Source: Escherichia coli
GTDB lineage: Bacteria > Pseudomonadota > Gammaproteobacteria > Enterobacterales > Enterobacteriaceae
Reading direction: 5' to 3' (one strand)
Assembly: GCF_044324785.1 (NCBI RefSeq)
Contig: NZ_CP172127.1
DNA length: 64,000 nt
Both the position numbers and the translations under genes were made by a program. A model generated the notes under the pieces. The model saw only the letters and a program-made list of their open reading frames with translations. It ran no database searches and was not told the DNA's origin. This document shows, one piece after another, positions 2,443-40,133 of this stretch (position 1 is the stretch's first letter; each line of letters begins with the position of its first letter).

Positions 2443-3663
2443 GTGGTTGCTGAAAACCAGCCTGGGCACATTGATCAAATAAAGCAGACCAACGCGGGCG
2501 CGGTTTATCGCCTGATTGATCAGCTTGGTCCAGTCTCGCGTATCGATCTTTCCCGTCTGGCGCAACTGGCTCCTGCCAGTATCACCAAAATTGTCCGTGA
2601 GATGCTCGAAGCACACTTGGTGCAAGAGCTGGAAATCAAAGAAGCGGGGAACCGTGGCCGTCCGGCGGTGGGGCTGGTGGTTGAAACTGAAGCCTGGCAC
2701 TATCTTTCTCTGCGCATTAGTCGCGGGGAGATTTTCCTTGCTTTGCGCGATCTGAGCAGCAAACTGGTGGTGGAAGAGTCGCAGGAACTGGCGTTAAAAG
2801 ATGACTTGCCATTGCTGGATCGTATTATTTCCCATATCGATCAGTTTTTTATCCGCCATCAGAAAAAACTTGAGCGTCTGACTTCGATTGCCATTACCTT
2901 GCCGGGAATTATTGATACGGAAAATGGTATTGTACATCGCATGCCGTTCTACGAGGATGTAAAAGAGATGCCGCTCGGCGAGGCGCTGGAGCAGCATACC
3001 GGCGTACCGGTTTATATTCAGCATGATATCAGCGCATGGACGATGGCTGAGGCCTTGTTTGGTGCCTCACGCGGGGCGCGCGATGTGATTCAGGTGGTTA
3101 TCGATCACAACGTGGGGGCGGGCGTCATTACCGATGGTCATCTGCTACACGCAGGCAGCAGTAGCCTCGTGGAAATAGGTCACACGCAGGTCGACCCGTA
3201 TGGGAAACGCTGTTATTGCGGGAATCACGGCTGCCTCGAAACCATCGCCAGTGTGGACAGTATTCTTGAGCTGGCACAGCTGCGTCTTAATCAATCCATG
3301 AGCTCGATGTTACATGGACAGCCGTTAACCGTGGACTCATTGTGTCAGGCGGCATTGCGCGGCGATCTACTGGCAAAAGACATCATTACCGGGGTGGGCG
3401 CGCATGTCGGGCGCATTCTTGCCATCATGGTGAATTTATTTAACCCACAAAAAATACTGATTGGCTCACCGTTAAGTAAAGCGGCAGAAATCCTCTTCCC
3501 GGTCATCTCGGACAGCATCCGTCAGCAGGCCCTTCCTGCGTATAGTCAGCACATTAGCGTTGAGAGTACTCAGTTTTCTAACCAGGGCACGATGGCAGGC
3601 GCTGCGCTGGTAAAAGACGCGATGTATAACGGTTCTTTGTTGATTCGTCTGTTGCAGGGTTAA
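2443..3663 (+). CDS. mlc: ROK-family global repressor Mlc (DgsA)
   Basis: 406-aa ORF, probable GTG start, ROK family with Cys-rich zinc motif (CYCGNHGCLE). Confidence 0.9.
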   Translation: MVAENQPGHIDQIKQTNAGAVYRLIDQLGPVSRIDLSRLAQLAPASITKIVREMLEAHLVQELEIKEAGNRGRPAVGLVVETEAWHYLSLRISRGEIFLALRDLSSKLVVEESQELALKDDLPLLDRIISHIDQFFIRHQKKLERLTSIAITLPGIIDTENGIVHRMPFYEDVKEMPLGEALEQHTGVPVYIQHDISAWTMAEALFGASRGARDVIQVVIDHNVGAGVITDGHLLHAGSSSLVEIGHTQVDPYGKRCYCGNHGCLETIASVDSILELAQLRLNQSMSSMLHGQPLTVDSLCQAALRGDLLAKDIITGVGAHVGRILAIMVNLFNPQKILIGSPLSKAAEILFPVISDSIRQQALPAYSQHISVESTQFSNQGTMAGAALVKDAMYNGSLLIRLLQG

Positions 3664-23055: not shown

Positions 23056-23108
23056 GGGCGGCAGAGCAGTCACGGAGTAAAACTGATACCGCCAAACGTC
23101 ACCAGAAA
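23056..23108 (-). ncRNA. dicF: DicF small regulatory RNA
   Basis: Minus strand reads TTTCTGGTGACGTTTGGCGGTATCAGTTTTACTCCGTGACTGCTCTGCCGCCC followed by a T-run, matching recalled DicF; lies between ydfC and dicB as in K-12. Confidence 0.85.
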
Positions 23109-24149: not shown

Positions 24150-24557
24150 TTATTTTATTGATTTATTTTTACGCGCTTTAAGCATTTCTTCGAAGAGTTT
24201 GTTGAAGTTTTCTACTCTTGCGCGCATTTCAGACAGCAAGGCTTCCTGCTCGGAAGATGGAAGAGCATCGAATAATTCGATCAATTCTTTGTGGTTGGGA
24301 GTTAGCTCTGTTTCCACATGAAGTTCTTGTGCAGGCACTGGTGCCTTGTCTTCGTCACCAAACATTAGCCATGTAGGTGAGCACTTCAGAGCATCCGCTA
24401 AAGCAAACAATCGTTTTCCGACTGGCTGGGTTTCGTCTCTTTCCCATTGTGAAATTGTGACGTGAGCAACTCCAGCGAGGCGCGCGGCTTCTCGTTGTGT
24501 TAAGCGTAATTCTTTTCGTCGCGCCAGAACTCGCTGGCCCAGGGTTCTTGTATCCAT
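24150..24557 (-). CDS. dicA: Cro/C1-type HTH repressor, DicA-like
   Basis: 135 aa with N-terminal HTH (LRLTQREAARLAGVAHVTISQWE); divergent from dicC. Confidence 0.8.
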   Translation of the reverse strand: MDTRTLGQRVLARRKELRLTQREAARLAGVAHVTISQWERDETQPVGKRLFALADALKCSPTWLMFGDEDKAPVPAQELHVETELTPNHKELIELFDALPSSEQEALLSEMRARVENFNKLFEEMLKARKNKSIK

Positions 24558-24606
24558 AGTTAGGTAATTCTAATTTTTCTTGACTTAGGTATCCCGCGCA
24601 CAATAA

Positions 24607-24624
24607 TGTTAGAAAAGTCTAACA
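24607..24624. promoter_or_regulatory. 18-bp palindromic operator in the dicA-dicC divergent promoter region
   Basis: tgttagaaaagtctaaca just upstream of the dicC start, with a TTGACT -35-like hexamer at 24580-24585. Confidence 0.5.
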
Positions 24625-24634
24625 AGAGGGGGAT

Positions 24635-24865
24635 TTGATGCTTAAAGTTGACGCAATTACTTTTTTTGGCAGCAAAACAAAGCTTGCCAATGCCGCAGGA
24701 GTGAGGCTGGCAAGTGTTGCTGCTTGGGGGATACTGGTTCCTGAAGGTCGCGCGATGCGTCTACAGGAGGCATCTGGCGGGGAGCTTCAGTATGATCCCA
24801 AAGTTTATGATGAATATCGTAAGACGAAGCGGGCGGGGCGGTTGAACAATGAAAATCACTCCTGA
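24635..24865 (+). CDS. dicC: Cro-like regulator DicC
   Basis: 76 aa; C-terminal RAMRLQEASGGELQYDPKVYDEYRKTKRAG matches recalled DicC. Confidence 0.8.
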   Translation: MMLKVDAITFFGSKTKLANAAGVRLASVAAWGILVPEGRAMRLQEASGGELQYDPKVYDEYRKTKRAGRLNNENHS

Positions 24866-25370: not shown

Positions 25371-26316
25371 ACGCCCACTGGTTATAAACACGCAGCTGGC
25401 AATGAAAATTGGCTTAAACGAAGCCATTGTTTTGCAACAACTGCACTACTGGTTGAGAGATACCAACTCCGGCATGGAATGTGATGGTGTTCGCTGGATT
25501 TATAACACAACGGAACAATGGCTGGAACAGTTCCCATTCTGGTCAGAGTCAACGTTAAAGCGCGCGTTTGCAAGTCTGAAAACGCTGGGGCTTTTGCGTT
25601 GTGAAAAGCTCAATAAATCAAAGCGCGATATGACCAATTTCTACACGATCAACTATGGGAGCGAGCTTTTAGATGGTGGCAAATTGAGCGAATCCATCGG
25701 TTCAAAATGCGCCGCTCCATCAGGTCAAAATGACACGATGGAAGAGGTCAAAATGAAACGCTCCATTGATTCAAAACGACCCAATGTCATCGGGTCAAAA
25801 TGGCCTGATGATCTTACAGAGAATACAACAGAGATTACTACAGAGAATAAAAACACTTTTCGTCCGGAAGCTTCGCAACCGGACCCGCAGACGACTGAAC
25901 AGGATTTTTTAACCCGGAACTCCGACGCGGTTGTGTTTAGTGCGAAAAAACGCCAGTGGGGTAGCAGGGAGGATTTGGCGTGTGCGCAGTGGATCTGGGG
26001 GCGGATCGTGGGTCTCTACGAACAGGCAGCCAGTGATGATGGCGAGATCATGCGACCAAAAGAGCCTAACTGGACTGCCTGGGCCAATGACGTGCGCACA
26101 ATGCGGATGCTGGATGGCAGAAGCCACAGACAAATTTGCGAAATGTTTGGTCGGGTTCAGCGAGATCCATTCTGGGTAAAAAACATCATGAGCCCGTCAA
26201 AGCTCCGCGAAAAATGGGACGAACTGGTCATCCGCCTGGGACGTTCACCTGTACAGCGTTGTGTTAATCATATTTCTGAACCGGATACAGAAATTCCGCC
26301 TGGTTTCAGAGGATAA
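25297..26316 (+). CDS. phage replication initiation/organizer protein (O-like)
   Basis: N-terminal winged-helix replisome-organizer-like region, acidic linker, conserved C-terminal domain; true start probably MSLLFAERP at 25351. Confidence 0.6.
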   Translation: MLSSLRIDSNTNKKLDGIMSLLFAERPLVINTQLAMKIGLNEAIVLQQLHYWLRDTNSGMECDGVRWIYNTTEQWLEQFPFWSESTLKRAFASLKTLGLLRCEKLNKSKRDMTNFYTINYGSELLDGGKLSESIGSKCAAPSGQNDTMEEVKMKRSIDSKRPNVIGSKWPDDLTENTTEITTENKNTFRPEASQPDPQTTEQDFLTRNSDAVVFSAKKRQWGSREDLACAQWIWGRIVGLYEQAASDDGEIMRPKEPNWTAWANDVRTMRMLDGRSHRQICEMFGRVQRDPFWVKNIMSPSKLREKWDELVIRLGRSPVQRCVNHISEPDTEIPPGFRG

Positions 26317-26356
26317 GTGTTGATTTCAGGTCATGAGGTAATTTTAAGGGGGACTT

Positions 26357-26779
26357 GTGGCAAAAGTTTTTACACAAGAAGAGCGGGAAAAAATTAAATG
26401 GCAGGTGGTGGAACTCGTGCGCCAGAGCGGCCGTGAGACGTTACGGCAACTGGAAGCTAAAACAGGTGCGACTAGATATCTGATGAGCGTTCTTGCCAGA
26501 GAGCTGGTAGCCAGTGGCGATGTATACAACTCCGGCTACGGGTTATTCCCCTCTGAACAGGCGCGTAAGGACTGGCAAAACGCCCGCAAAAAACTCTCGA
26601 GGGCAAAGGTGAAGAAACCTGCTGTGGTTGATCCGGACCTTATCTGGTCATCACCTGACGGAGAAATACGTCGCTACGACAGTCGCCTAAACATAATCTG
26701 TCGCGAGTGCCGGAAGAGCGAAGTTATGCAGCGCATACTGGCTTTCTATCAGGGTAATTTTCAGGACGTGGCGCAGTGA
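26357..26779 (+). CDS. hypothetical phage protein
   Basis: 140-aa ORF with good coding character, no recognisable motif. Confidence 0.45.
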   Translation: MAKVFTQEEREKIKWQVVELVRQSGRETLRQLEAKTGATRYLMSVLARELVASGDVYNSGYGLFPSEQARKDWQNARKKLSRAKVKKPAVVDPDLIWSSPDGEIRRYDSRLNIICRECRKSEVMQRILAFYQGNFQDVAQ

Positions 26780-27210
26780 GTGCACCGGCAACCATTCTTG
26801 ATATGTGCTGTGGCAGCCGCATGTTCTGGTTCGATAAGTCTGACGAACGGGCGATATTTAGCGATATCAGAAAAGAAGGATACACATTACGCAATGGGAG
26901 ACGCTTGATTATCAGCCCTGACATTATCGCAGATTTTCGTGCATTATCATTTGCAGACGCATCTTTTTCGATGGTTGTATTAGACCCTCCGCATCTTGAG
27001 CGTGTTGGTGATAACGCCTGGATGGGAAAGAAATATGGACGGCTGAATAAAGATGCCTGGCGTGATGATTTGCGACAGAGATTTAAAGAAGCTTTTCGGG
27101 TGTTGAGGCCGCACGGCGTTCTGATTTTTTAATGGAATGAAACGCAAATACCGGTAAGCCAGATTCTGGCACTGACAGATAGAAAGCCTGTTATCTGTCA
27201 ACGAACAGGG
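26776..27210 (+). pseudogene. truncated phage DNA methyltransferase (amino-MTase with DPPH motif)
   Basis: VLDPPHL catalytic motif; stop inside a T-run at 27130-27132, similarity continues about 26 codons in-frame after it. Confidence 0.6.
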
Positions 27211-27554
27211 AAAAAACGATAAAACCCACTGGATTATTTTTATGAAAGAGGCATCCAGTGAGTAGATTCGTAAGGTTACAGATACGTATATCTGAATAAT
27301 TAAATTCAGTTCTGTAAATAAAACTTAATCCTTAACCGGATGGATTTCTGCACCCTCAGAACATCAGGAGGCCGCCCGAAAGGGCGGTAGTGAAATGCGA
27401 AAGTTCAAAATTATTATTGAAACGGGAATAGCTGGTGGAGATTTTGAGGATGTATTCGAAGTGGACGATGACGCAACACCTGATGAAATTCATGACGGAG
27501 CATAAGAAATTTTCTTTAACTACTGCAATTACTCATACCACGAAATAAAAGACG

Positions 27555-28030
27555 ATGAGGAAGAACAAAGTGGCTGATTTTTGTTCAGCTAAATATAACA
27601 TCAGTTTTGAAGAGCGGGATGAACTATTAATGGACTATGGTGAGTTACGCGGTGGAAGTGCTGCTGATGTCGAATCCTAGCGTGATGACTATGAAGCGGG
27701 AAAAACTCCGGTCGAAGCATATTGTGAGGAGTGGGGCGATGAATGAGCGAGATTAATTATCAGGAAGGGCATGAAACGGCGGGGCAAGCAAAACCAGTGA
27801 CATGGCGATATCGCTACGTGAAAAAAGGCGTTACGGACTTTCAGGGGAAGTAGTGGTCTGGTGACTGGAAATATGTACCGAAAAAAGAGGATTGTAACGA
27901 CAGGCCGAACTATCAAATTCAGGCCTTATTCACTGCCTCACCAGTCCCGGTTACATCAGAAGAATTGGTTAAAGCTGTGCACTTTTATGAACAACTAAAA
28001 CGCGAAAATCCACCAACATCCGGCAACTAG
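27555..28030 (+). pseudogene. two translationally coupled small ORFs, each interrupted by one in-frame TAG
   Basis: Frame-0 ORF 27555-27746 has TAG at 27678; overlapping frame-2 ORF 27743-28030 (MSEINYQEGHE...) has TAG at 27851. Confidence 0.35.
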
Positions 28031-28284
28031 ATTAATGGGTTAACTATGTCGGTTAAACGACCAGCCAACTGAAAAAGCGGAAACCTGATTACAGGTTGCC
28101 AGATAAGGCAATGAGCTACCTGGCGCGGAACGGACTGATAAGTATGGGGAATGTTTTACGATGAACCTTTAGACTAAAGAGTTTGTAACGCTATGTAAGT
28201 GATTTTTTCTGGTTTAGATATTTATATGTCCGGCCAAATTGAGGTGTGTTTAAATGTAATTGCACATTGATTGTAGGAGGAATA

Positions 28285-28464: not shown

Positions 28465-29755
28465 ATACAGCGAACTCCATTGGTTTAGTTGGATATTTAC
28501 TGTGCTGGACAAAAACGGTTTGCGGGGAAATCTTAGTTAAGTAGAATGACTGCGGGTGCTTGAGGCTATCTGCCTCGGGCACGAACACCAACGGCAGGTA
28601 GAGAAAAGCCCCAGTTAACATTACGCGTCCTGCAAGACGCTTAACATTAATCTGAGGCCAATTTCATGCCAGACACATGTAGGTTAGCCTCTTACGTGCC
28701 GAAAGGCAAGGAGAAGCAGGCTATTGTTAACACCAAGCTGTAATGTCCCCTTTGAACCATTCTAAAATGTCCCCAGACAATTCTCTGGGGGATTTTTCAT
28801 GACCAAAGAAACTGTTACGATGAGTCATAAGGAACTCCACCGACTTCAGATTATTCAGGAGTCAATTAATCGACATATTACTCAGGAACAAGCTGCGGCA
28901 CGCATTGGCATTTCTATTCGGCAGGTTAAACGTCTGGTGCAACGGTATAGAAATGAAGGGCCTTCTGGTCTGGTTTCCCACCGACGTGGAAAGCGTCCTA
29001 ATAATTCCTTTTCTACTGAATTCAGAGCAACAGTAATTTTACTCCTCAAAGGCCGTTACGCTGATTTTGGACCTACGTTTGCGTGCGAAAAATTGCGCGA
29101 GATACACGGTTTATCTTTATCCGTTGAAACTCTCAGAAAGTGGATGATAGAAGAGGGGGGTATGGCGTGAACGCCGTCGTAAAATTGCCCGTATATATCA
29201 ACGCCGCATGCGACGACCATCTTACGGTGAACTGATCCAGATTGATGGCTCACCTCATGACTGGTTTGAAAATCGAGGCCCCAGATGTACACTGATCGTT
29301 TTCATTGATGATGCCACCAGTGCGTTGATGGCGTTGCGTTTTGTGCCTGCTGAAACAACCCGGGCTTACATGGAAACCCTCCGGGGTTACCTTAATGATC
29401 ATGGCGTACCGCTCGCTCTCTACTCTGATAGACACAGTATATTCAGGGTAAATAACCCAGAGCGGGAAGGTGAGCTGACCCAGTTCACTCGTGCGATAAA
29501 GACACTGGGCATCGAGCCAATCCATGCCAACAGCCCGCAGGCAAAAGGGCGGGTAGAGCGCGCCAATCAGACACTACAGGACAGGCTGGTCAAAGAAATG
29601 CGGCTTCAGAATATCAGTGATATTGAAACAGCAAATGCATGGTTGCCGACCTTTATTGAAGCCTATAACAACCGGTTCGCTACGTCGCCTCGTACTACTG
29701 ATAATGCTCATCTTGATGTGCACCATTCTGAAGAGGAACTGGGTTATATCTTCAG

Positions 29756-29764: not shown

Positions 29765-30821
29765 GGCTTTGTTGAATAAATCAGATTTCGGGTAAGTCTC
29801 CCCCGTAGCGGGTTGTGTTTTCAGGCAATACGCACGCTTTCAGGCATACCTGCTTTCGTCATTTTGTTCAGCGCTCGTACCAGGGCCATAGCCTCCGCAA
29901 CCTGACCATCGTAGTCACGCAGCGTCAGTGAACCCCCGAACAGCTGTTTTACCCGGTACATCGCCGTTTCCGCTATCGAGCGACGGTTGTAATCTGTTGT
30001 CCATTTCCACCGCGCATTACTCCCGGTCATTCGCTGATTAGCCACTGCACGGTTACGGTCTGCATATTCACCGGGCCAGTAACCCGCACCTTTTCGGGGA
30101 GGGATAAGCGCGCTGATTTTCTTACGCCGCAGTTCATCGTGACATAGCCGGGTATCGTAAGCGCCATCGGCGGCGGCTGACCTGATTTTCCGGTGGGTTT
30201 GCCGGATTAACCCGGGGAAGGCCTCTGAGTCCGTAACGTTGTTCAGCGACAGGTCAGCGCAGATGATTTCATGTGTTTTACTGTCAACGGCGAGATGCAG
30301 CTTACGCCAGATACGGCGGCGTTCCTGGCCATGCTTTTTGACTTTCCACTCGCCTTCACCGAAGACCTTCAGCCCGGTGGAATCAATTACCAGGTGTGCG
30401 ATTTCACCCCGGGTGGGCGTTTTGAAACTGACATTAACCGACTTTGCCCGCCTGCTGACACAGCTGTAATCCGGGCAGCGTAGCGGAACGTTCATCAGAG
30501 AAAAAATGGAATCAATAAAGCCCTGCGCAGCCCGCAGGGTCAGCCTGAATACGCGTTTAATGACCAGCACAGTAGTGATGGCAAGGTCAGAATAGCGCTG
30601 AGGTCTGCCTCGTGAAGAAGGTGTTGCTGACTCATACCAGGCCTGAATAGCTTCATCATCCAGCCAGAAAGTTATGGAGCCACGGTTGATGAGGGCTTTA
30701 TTGTAGGTGGGCCAGTTGGTGATTTTGAACTTTTGCTTTGCCACGGAACGGTCTGCGTTGTCGGGAAGATACGTGATCTGATCCTTCAACTCAGCAAAAG
30801 TTCGATTTATTCAACAAAGCC
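29765..30821 (-). mobile_element. IS903-group insertion sequence (IS5 family), 1057 bp
   Basis: Perfect 18-bp terminal inverted repeats GGCTTTGTTGAATAAATC, 1057-bp length and 9-bp duplication typical of IS903/IS102. Confidence 0.9.
29821..30744 (-). CDS. IS903-type DDE transposase
   Basis: ORF inside the IS with DDE residues and YREK-like signature; probable GTG start giving 307 aa. Confidence 0.85.
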   Translation of the reverse strand: MAKQKFKITNWPTYNKALINRGSITFWLDDEAIQAWYESATPSSRGRPQRYSDLAITTVLVIKRVFRLTLRAAQGFIDSIFSLMNVPLRCPDYSCVSRRAKSVNVSFKTPTRGEIAHLVIDSTGLKVFGEGEWKVKKHGQERRRIWRKLHLAVDSKTHEIICADLSLNNVTDSEAFPGLIRQTHRKIRSAAADGAYDTRLCHDELRRKKISALIPPRKGAGYWPGEYADRNRAVANQRMTGSNARWKWTTDYNRRSIAETAMYRVKQLFGGSLTLRDYDGQVAEAMALVRALNKMTKAGMPESVRIA

Positions 30822-30830
30822 CCTACAGGC
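30822..30830. repeat. 9-bp target site duplication (CCTACAGGC), right copy
   Basis: Direct repeat of 29756-29764. Confidence 0.8.
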
Positions 30831-36525: not shown

Positions 36526-36825
36526 AAAAATTCCTTAATACTGATAACTTGGCGCACTATACACACGTTCCTGAAGAAAGCTATAGTTTTTTGATGGGGT
36601 TGAAGATGGCTGGATGTCTAAAATAAACATTGCTTCATATGTTCAACTATGCGTTAATGATTGCGTCGGTTTGAAGAACAGACGATATACGAAGTAGTTT
36701 ACTAAAGCAGTTCTCATTTCAGGTGTTATTCACTTATTCCTTCTTTGAGTCTCTCCAATTAAGTACGAAGTCGTTTCTGTTATGCAAACCATTTATGCCG
36801 AAAGGCTCAAGTTAAGGAATGTAGA

Positions 36826-37041
36826 ATGTCAAATAAAATGACTGGTTTAGTAAAATGGTTTAACGCTGATAAAGGTTTCGGCTTTATTTCTCCTGTTGAT
36901 GGTAGTAAAGATGTGTTTGTGCATTTTTCTGCGATTCAGAATGATAATTATCGAACCTTATTTGAAGGTCAAAAGGTTACCTTCTCTATAGAGAGTGGTG
37001 CTAAAGGTCCTGCAGCAGCAAATGTCATCATTACTGATTAA
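36826..37041 (+). CDS. cspB: cold-shock protein CspB
   Basis: 71 aa [23 protein letters not shown] with RNP motifs. Confidence 0.9.
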
Positions 37042-37322
37042 AATTCATCGCTCGTCTGTATACGATAACGAAGAAGGCTGATGCCTGAGTAGAGATACGG
37101 ACAGAGTAGTGAATATTGGATCTCTTTAATAAAAAGTAAGGAGGTCCAATACATGAAACAATGGCTAGCATATTTGGCAAAATCTTAATCAGGAAAAGTA
37201 TGCTAACCATTGTGGTGAAGTGCAGGTTTGCTGCATGAATAGTTTTACAGCAGAAGCTAACTGCTGGCATGGCAAAACAAAGTGCGTAAGTGGATGACTC
37301 CCACAAAAAGCACCACAATCTC

Positions 37323-39350: not shown

Positions 39351-39713
39351 GGTAATATTAAATCGGAACATTTACATCGCGGAATGTAAAATTTAAATAA
39401 AAAGGACTCTTCCATGAGCCAAAATTCCTGAAATCTTAAGGGTAAGATAAAAGGTCTTAATCAGAATGACACGTTATTATTAATAAATAAAGCTATTCTT
39501 TCATTGCTGTGTTTTTCTTTACAAAAGTAATCCTTGCTATGGGTGGTTAATCATGCGTTAATGGTGTTCTGGTTTGTTACAAATTTATCTGAAGCAGTCA
39601 TTGTTATAATTTTATTATTTGTACCTCTTGAGATTTCCTTGTTGGTTTTTCTCTCTGATATTTTTTTTCGGACCATTCTGCCCAAGGGCTAATTTCTTCA
39701 AAAGGTAATAATT

Positions 39714-39926
39714 ATGTCTAACAAAATGACTGGTTTAGTGAAATGGTTTAACCCTGAAAAAGGTTTTGGTTTCATCACGCCGAAAGATGGCAGCAAAGAT
39801 GTGTTTGTCCATTTCTCAGCAATTCAGAGCAACGATTTCAAAACATTAACTGAGAATCAGGAAGTTGAATTTGGTATTGAGAACGGACCTAAAGGTCCTG
39901 CCGCTGTTCATGTAGTGGCGCTTTGA
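39714..39926 (+). CDS. cspI: cold-shock protein CspI
   Basis: 70 aa [23 protein letters not shown]. Confidence 0.9.
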
Positions 39927-40133
39927 GGTAGACAATATTACAAACCATATTCACTTTAGATGCCCGTGTTGTCATGGTTCCCAGTATAGAACATCATCTT
40001 TTGATGTTTCTGACATGAATCCTTTCGGGGCAAAATGTATCTTTTGTAAATCAATGATGATTACATTTGATAATATTTCACAATACTTAAATGCCAGCCG
40101 TCTGTCGTTGGATTTAAAAAAGTGAAAATGAAG

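Follow-up and report, generated by a model that had tools for sequence, protein, structure and literature searches.

An N-terminal motif I with DPPH directly after strand β4 is the arrangement of methyltransferases that act on exocyclic or amide nitrogen. The N6_N4_Mtase enzymes and the m2G RNA methyltransferases, RsmD included, share a motif IV of the form (D/N/S)PP(Y/F/W/H) and the class I Rossmann-like fold with the protein described here. The m2G methyltransferases Trm11, TrmN, RsmC and Trm14, as well as N6_N4_Mtase, show weak profile and fold similarity to it. Two differences stand out: the protein has motif I before motif IV, whereas PF01555 models the reverse, β-class order, and, unlike the amino-methyltransferases, it has no target-recognition, THUMP or other substrate-binding domain. 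Three intact copies, with 72–88% amino acid identity to the repaired or read-through product and the same motif order, motif I and then DPPH, provide a direct comparison:

Klebsiella phage ST846-OXA48phi9.2, QBP07693.1, 160 amino acids
Pectobacterium phage ZF40, gp20, 158 amino acids
E. coli M8, in a different prophage, WP_073535260.1, 157 amino acids

The copy considered here lies in a Qin-type prophage within the window, the 64,000-nucleotide stretch of E. coli DNA that we analysed. It is almost certainly a decaying pseudogene of a small phage class I methyltransferase, disabled by two mutations. An A>T transversion at 27130 cuts the protein within strand β5, an additional G at 27208–27210 shifts the frame of the remaining C-terminal coding sequence, and both lesions predate the spread or diversification of the Qin lineage, with the open reading frame (ORF) probably drifting neutrally since.

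The ancestral enzyme and its family

The remnant ORF and its recognizable motifs are as follows:

26357–26779, + strand: intact DUF977-family gene immediately upstream, translationally coupled to the methyltransferase start
26776–27132, + strand: methyltransferase remnant ORF, 118 codons from a GTG start, then TAA
26794–26826, + strand: motif I, the SAM-binding loop ILDMCCGSRMF, residues 7–17, after strand β1
26983–26994, + strand: motif IV, DPPH, residues 70–73, at the end of β4; invariant in 47 of 47 aligned homologs

The GTG start at 26776 shares four nucleotides (GTGA) with the TGA stop of the DUF977 gene. The intact enzyme is a class I SAM-dependent methyltransferase of about 162 residues, with a seven-strand Rossmann-like fold, a glycine-containing motif I loop after β1 and an acidic residue ending β2. 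The AlphaFold2 model of the repaired protein has a mean pLDDT of 93.8 and a pTM of 0.88. In this model, a strand at residues 7–11 runs into motif I, and the β4 strand (residues 64–70) leads into VVLDPPH (residues 66–73 of the remnant ORF), so placed as to fit the motif IV pattern (D/N/S)PP(Y/F/W/H) that follows β4 in N6A/N4C DNA methyltransferases. All predicted elements belong to one class I catalytic core of about 160 residues, with no target-recognition domain in the model. Helices are absent before residue 82, and loops and a small hairpin occupy the positions of the canonical helices A to C; judged from the model, the family fold looks stripped down relative to a canonical class I methyltransferase.

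Across an alignment of 47 diverse homologs, residues D9, C12, D30, R32, P48, D70-P71-P72-H73, E105, R108, K119, W120 and P138 are invariant, and G13 and K157 are nearly so. The conserved DxCCG form of motif I (alignment A3) includes the invariant cysteine, C12. The family comprises 6,410 clusters at 90% identity and 2,033 representatives at 50% identity; its members are mostly 157–170 residues long, with a 248-residue subgroup and some relatives bearing N- or C-terminal extensions. A literature search returned no experimental paper on the family and nothing on the Qin gene. This seems to be a minimal DPPH methyltransferase family that is very widespread and has no experimentally defined substrate.

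Profile and structure searches place the protein broadly. It scores 16.4 bits against Pfam N6_N4_Mtase (PF01555), below the 26.7-bit cut-off, and only 8 of 47 family members match that profile even at E ≤ 0.01; with Methyltransf_11 it is borderline, at the cut-off. The NCBIfam profile search gave no match near its cut-offs, and sequence searches of the PDB gave nothing beyond weak generic or m2G-methyltransferase matches. By profile search, the leading PDB entry was PH0226, a protein of unknown function, followed by very weak matches to Trm11, the RsmD-like HI0767 and UPF0020. Foldseek against BFVD found one unnamed close relative, with other matches weak. The match to PHROG 954 is strong (E = 1e-81), its label of DNA methyltransferase being an annotation rather than a test.

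Because the fold is generic, the N6_N4_Mtase match lies below threshold and a target-recognition domain is absent, we treat the label of adenine or cytosine DNA methyltransferase as a hypothesis. The early, nin-like location of the gene in temperate phages is compatible with a role in DNA methylation and does not prove it. The original prediction had named a phage DNA methyltransferase: the methyltransferase is upheld as class I, and its DNA target has the PHROG label as its one support, N6_N4_Mtase being sub-threshold.

Two lesions in the Qin-type copy

The sequence at and beyond the stop codon contains the following:

27125–27132, + strand: stop context TTTTTTAA, in which T27130 is the mutated base (ancestral A)
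27133–27210, + strand: 26 in-frame codons after the stop, WNETQIPVSQILALTDRKPVICQRTG, which align with homologs of the family
27208–27210, + strand: GGG run with a one-base G insertion (ancestral GG), column 439 of alignment A1
27220–27222, + strand: out-of-frame TAA that closes the shifted reading (...TGKKR*)
27209–27265, + strand: genuine C-terminus, encoded in the +1 frame as GKNDKTHWIIFMKEASSE and ending in TAG at 27263–27265, from translation against homologs

The product of the remnant ORF ends in ...GVLIF, followed by TAA at 27130–27132. The ORF, its DPPH motif and the position of the stop within a T-run had been predicted, and all were confirmed from the sequence. Beyond the stop, the frame stays open for 29 further codons, reading WNETQIPVSQILALTDRKPVICQRTGKKR, up to 27220–27222. 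When the read-through product was compared with phage genomes by tblastn, 254 records matched, and 244 of these cover at least 80% of the query across the stop; since so many phage records span the stop and PHROG 954 matches at E = 1e-81, chance resemblance of the post-stop sequence is ruled out.

We built a DNA alignment (A1) of the window, three other Qin-type copies, the intact M8 gene, an O157:H7 copy and the Klebsiella phage gene. Column 361 is T in all Qin-type copies and A in the intact M8, O157 and Klebsiella phage sequences. The A>T change at 27130 thus turns ATT TTT AAA TGG into ATT TTT TAA TGG, replacing the AAA codon of Lys119, an invariant residue across the 47 homologs, with a premature stop where all intact relatives read AAA (Lys). 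The T of the stop codon is the sixth of the run 27125–27130, which is followed by AA. Simple slippage in the T-run was considered and rejected: TTTTTAAA became TTTTTTAA with no change in length relative to the intact copies, and because the length is the same the lesion is a nonsense substitution. Of the two routes first proposed, nonsense or slippage, the former is borne out. The change makes the T-run one base longer and the A-run one base shorter. Such a gain at the expense of the neighbouring run is the expected signature of transient-misalignment mutagenesis, and we infer from the bases themselves that the substitution probably arose by transient misalignment ("dislocation") at the T5/A3 junction.

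In the AlphaFold2 model of the repaired protein, the region around and beyond the stop comprises a strand at residues 110–121, a helix at 127–131 and the last strands at 140–144 and 150–156, such that residues 119–162 account for the end of β5, one helix and two core-sheet strands. Truncation takes part of β5, the last helix and the whole β6–β7 hairpin. The conserved residues W120, P138 and K157 sit past the stop and, together with K119, all four are lost or displaced in the window. On the model and the conservation pattern, the truncated 118-residue product would be expected to be inactive.

The second lesion lies at the far end of the in-frame homology. Column 439 of A1 is a gap in the intact M8, O157 and Klebsiella phage sequences, and it is because of this additional G that the homology ends after exactly 26 codons, at 27210. 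The predicted count of 26 codons and the predicted end at 27210 were therefore exact. Beyond the insertion, the C-terminus in the +1 frame corresponds to ...GKNDKTHWIIFVK... in the homologs, and its TAG agrees with the end coordinate given by PGAP, the RefSeq annotation pipeline. Coding homology past the first lesion thus amounts to 26 in-frame codons followed by 18 in the +1 frame. This continuation to the TAG places the ancestral gene at 26776–27265 minus one base, encoding 162 amino acids. The intact M8 and phage genes are uninterrupted; they read AAA (Lys) in place of the window's TAA and GG in place of its GGG. The original account of a single inactivating event was right about the stop, missed the inserted G and fell short of the gene end at 27265.

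Comparison with full-length relatives supports the reading of a truncated gene. Intact relatives are 157–170 residues long, and for 236 of the 268 that were fetched the alignment reaches query position 150 or further. Among these 268, an end at residue 118 occurs only in the cluster of the Qin allele itself (P0123) and in one fragment; homologs that naturally end at this position were looked for and, beyond P0123 and the fragment, none was found. The prediction of an inactivated, prophage-borne methyltransferase agrees with the Qin location of the gene, its DPPH motif, invariant in the 47 homologs, and the coding sequence beyond its stop. Repair of the gene would take two edits, T27130 to A and removal of one G at 27208–27210; it would be simpler to clone an uninterrupted homolog, for example WP_073535260.1 from E. 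coli M8.

Spread in E. coli and alternative readings

Both lesions are old. Of the 484 complete E. coli genomes with the 70-mer centred on the TAA, 464 have it without a single difference, and the version with A put back at 27130 is absent from all 5,426 genomes, where matches reach 98.6% at best. A recent event, as was first suggested, is rejected at the level of the strain on these counts. Over the 1,101 bp around the locus, IAI1 and other complete E. coli chromosomes, at least 22 in all, are 100% identical to the window. In the complete-genome collection, the stop is present in all Qin-type copies and the frameshift in all but one, from which it follows that both are older than the spread or diversification of this prophage lineage in E. 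coli.

The alleles differ in ways that suggest relaxed constraint. The commonest, the KO11FL type, has six substitutions relative to the window, of which R76S and L100S are non-synonymous at conserved positions; the E275a allele carries E23K, and K_EC180 has a further one-nucleotide deletion inside the 118 codons. Relaxed constraint is seen in the second lesion, in R76S and L100S, in the K_EC180 deletion and in the neighbouring pseudogenes, the changes being too few for a dN/dS estimate. The pattern is that of an old, lineage-fixed lesion followed by neutral drift.

A phage record, PhiR42_1 (PV340562.1, a 48.7-kb "complete phage genome" from ECOR13), bears the doubly disrupted KO11FL-type allele (extract 1501–1995). 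If PhiR42_1 is viable, the methyltransferase gene is dispensable for that phage; a literature search found no paper on it.

A paralog in an O157:H7 prophage (MB41-1, extract 1001–1474), with 88% nucleotide identity, carries an independent TGG>TAG change at Trp95, and many O157:H7 genomes have the same pseudogene-style label for this paralogous copy. We consider it unlikely, though worth stating, that the family is an uncharacterised kind of enzyme, minimal at about 160 residues and very widespread in temperate phages of Gram-negative and Gram-positive hosts, acting on DNA without sequence specificity, RNA (m2G), protein or a small molecule. On that reading, the separate losses in E. coli prophages, by TAA in the Qin lineage and by TAG in O157:H7, might be due to selection against a working enzyme in lysogens and not to mere neglect. 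If so, the novelty would lie in the family, and the window copy would still be a dead gene.

It is very improbable that the 118-residue product is itself functional, for instance as a SAM-binding or regulatory fragment kept by selection. In its favour, 464 genomes share an intact ORF with the same bases around the stop, PGAP names the ORF as an ordinary protein in many genomes, and it retains motif I, D30, D53 and DPPH, so that by its motifs some residual activity may persist. However, a prophage passed on vertically within one species would also be expected to look identical from genome to genome, and the fragment is missing β6–β7 of the core sheet and the four conserved residues. R76S and L100S in the commonest allele, E23K in E275a and the K_EC180 frameshift all fall within the 118 codons, and no other lineage of the family stops at residue 118.

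Even less credible is that programmed recoding or phase variation, through read-through or through changes in the length of the T6 or GGG/A6 tracts, toggles a full-length enzyme. Both lesions do sit at or beside homopolymer runs. The repaired 69-mer for the frameshift site was found in one of 762 genomes, strain VE-V11-M (NZ_AP027978.1; locus extract 701–769), which has GG rather than GGG and is in frame there, yet keeps the TAA stop. Since the window-type and KO11FL-type alleles both carry the extra G, the simplest reading of this GG is a secondary loss or a misassembly, and it could be the ancestral state. Against toggling, no gain or loss of tract length could bring back an in-frame sense codon at the first lesion, which is a substitution; 464 of 484 genomes agree base for base across the T-run region, and the one non-identical full-length copy examined differed elsewhere; the GG variant is a single case in 762, possibly a secondary slip or an assembly error; and recoding would require two independent events. 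In E. coli, TAA terminates translation more efficiently than the other stop codons, which further counts against read-through.

Sequencing or assembly errors in the window, conceivable in that homopolymers are error-prone on some platforms, are just as implausible and were rejected, since the same bases recur in the phage record and in hundreds of complete genomes that were sequenced independently.

Prophage context and existing annotation

We identified a cryptic Qin (Kim) prophage by dicA, dicC, dicB and DicF, ydfA–D, relBE, hokD, cspB, cspF and cspI, and ydfU and ydfT, lying between rspB and ydf/ynf genes, all annotated in IAI1. The window is collinear with IAI1 1651337–1715336 (reverse strand) at 98.2–99.9% identity; its strain is a close relative of IAI1. 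This IAI1 stretch comprises the chromosomal genes ynfM to rspB and then a Qin-type lambdoid prophage. In abridged form, the prophage order in IAI1 begins with integrase, excisionase, exonuclease, ydfD, dicB, ydfC/B/A, dicA and dicC, continues with a ydaT-family gene, an O-like replication gene, the DUF977 gene, the methyltransferase, flxA, relBE and hokD, and ends with ydfU, ydfT, the csp genes, lysis genes, and head and tail genes. The intact copy in E. coli M8 also sits after replication and DUF977 genes. By blastn, window positions 24230–24727 (the dicA/dicC region) and 29765–30822 (the region of an IS remnant) did not align to IAI1; at these two short segments the strains differ. Other features around the locus are:

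23056–23107, − strand: DicF small RNA (Rfam), as expected for Qin
27395–27577, + strand: DUF7167-family pseudogene, next downstream, with TAA at 27503–27505 and in-frame coding sequence beyond it
about 27743–28164, + strand: third consecutive pseudogene, placed by coordinate offset and labelled in IAI1 as "hypothetical protein; frameshifted; internal stop"
36665–37057 and 39568–39953, + strand: cspA-type thermoregulator leaders (Rfam), presumably of the prophage cold-shock genes

PGAP likewise flags the DUF7167 gene with "internal stop" in IAI1, KO11FL and others. The whole segment from the DUF977 gene to the IS remnant is decaying.

The methyltransferase locus is an ordinary pseudogene that is already flagged publicly. 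In the RefSeq/PGAP annotation of IAI1, it is ECIAI1_RS08200, a [quoted passage not shown], which has both lesions and, like the window copy, a 3′ end equivalent to 27265; PGAP starts it at a position equivalent to 26821, downstream of the GTG start at 26776 in the window. The locus is called a pseudogene in IAI1, E275a, K_EC180 and E-ge-1. The same 118-codon ORF is listed in hundreds of genomes as WP_001310834.1, "class I SAM-dependent methyltransferase" (KO11FL extract 3001–3357; VE-V11-M extract 302–658). RefSeq is thus inconsistent, treating one sequence now as a pseudogene and now as an intact protein, and surveys of methylomes or defence systems that count methyltransferases should therefore exclude this ORF. 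Otherwise the locus matters little, being one more case of gene decay in a domesticated cryptic prophage.

A promoter and terminator scan of 26200–27700 gave consensus-level matches only, with no evident meaning. Ahead of the ATG of the DUF7167 pseudogene at 27395 (+ strand), an AGGAGG at 27366–27371 precedes a GC stem of 6 bp closed by a GAAA loop (CCGCCC-GAAA-GGGCGG, 27372–27387). Going by its sequence, this stem-loop region (27366–27397) might be a translational or processing element. Further downstream, at 28554–28725 (+ strand), a sok antitoxin RNA match scores 99.8 bits in Rfam against a gathering score of 59 and is unannotated in IAI1. It lies just upstream of an IS-associated helix-turn-helix ORF (28799–29170), with no intact hok-like ORF nearby, and may be a remnant of a hok/sok system.
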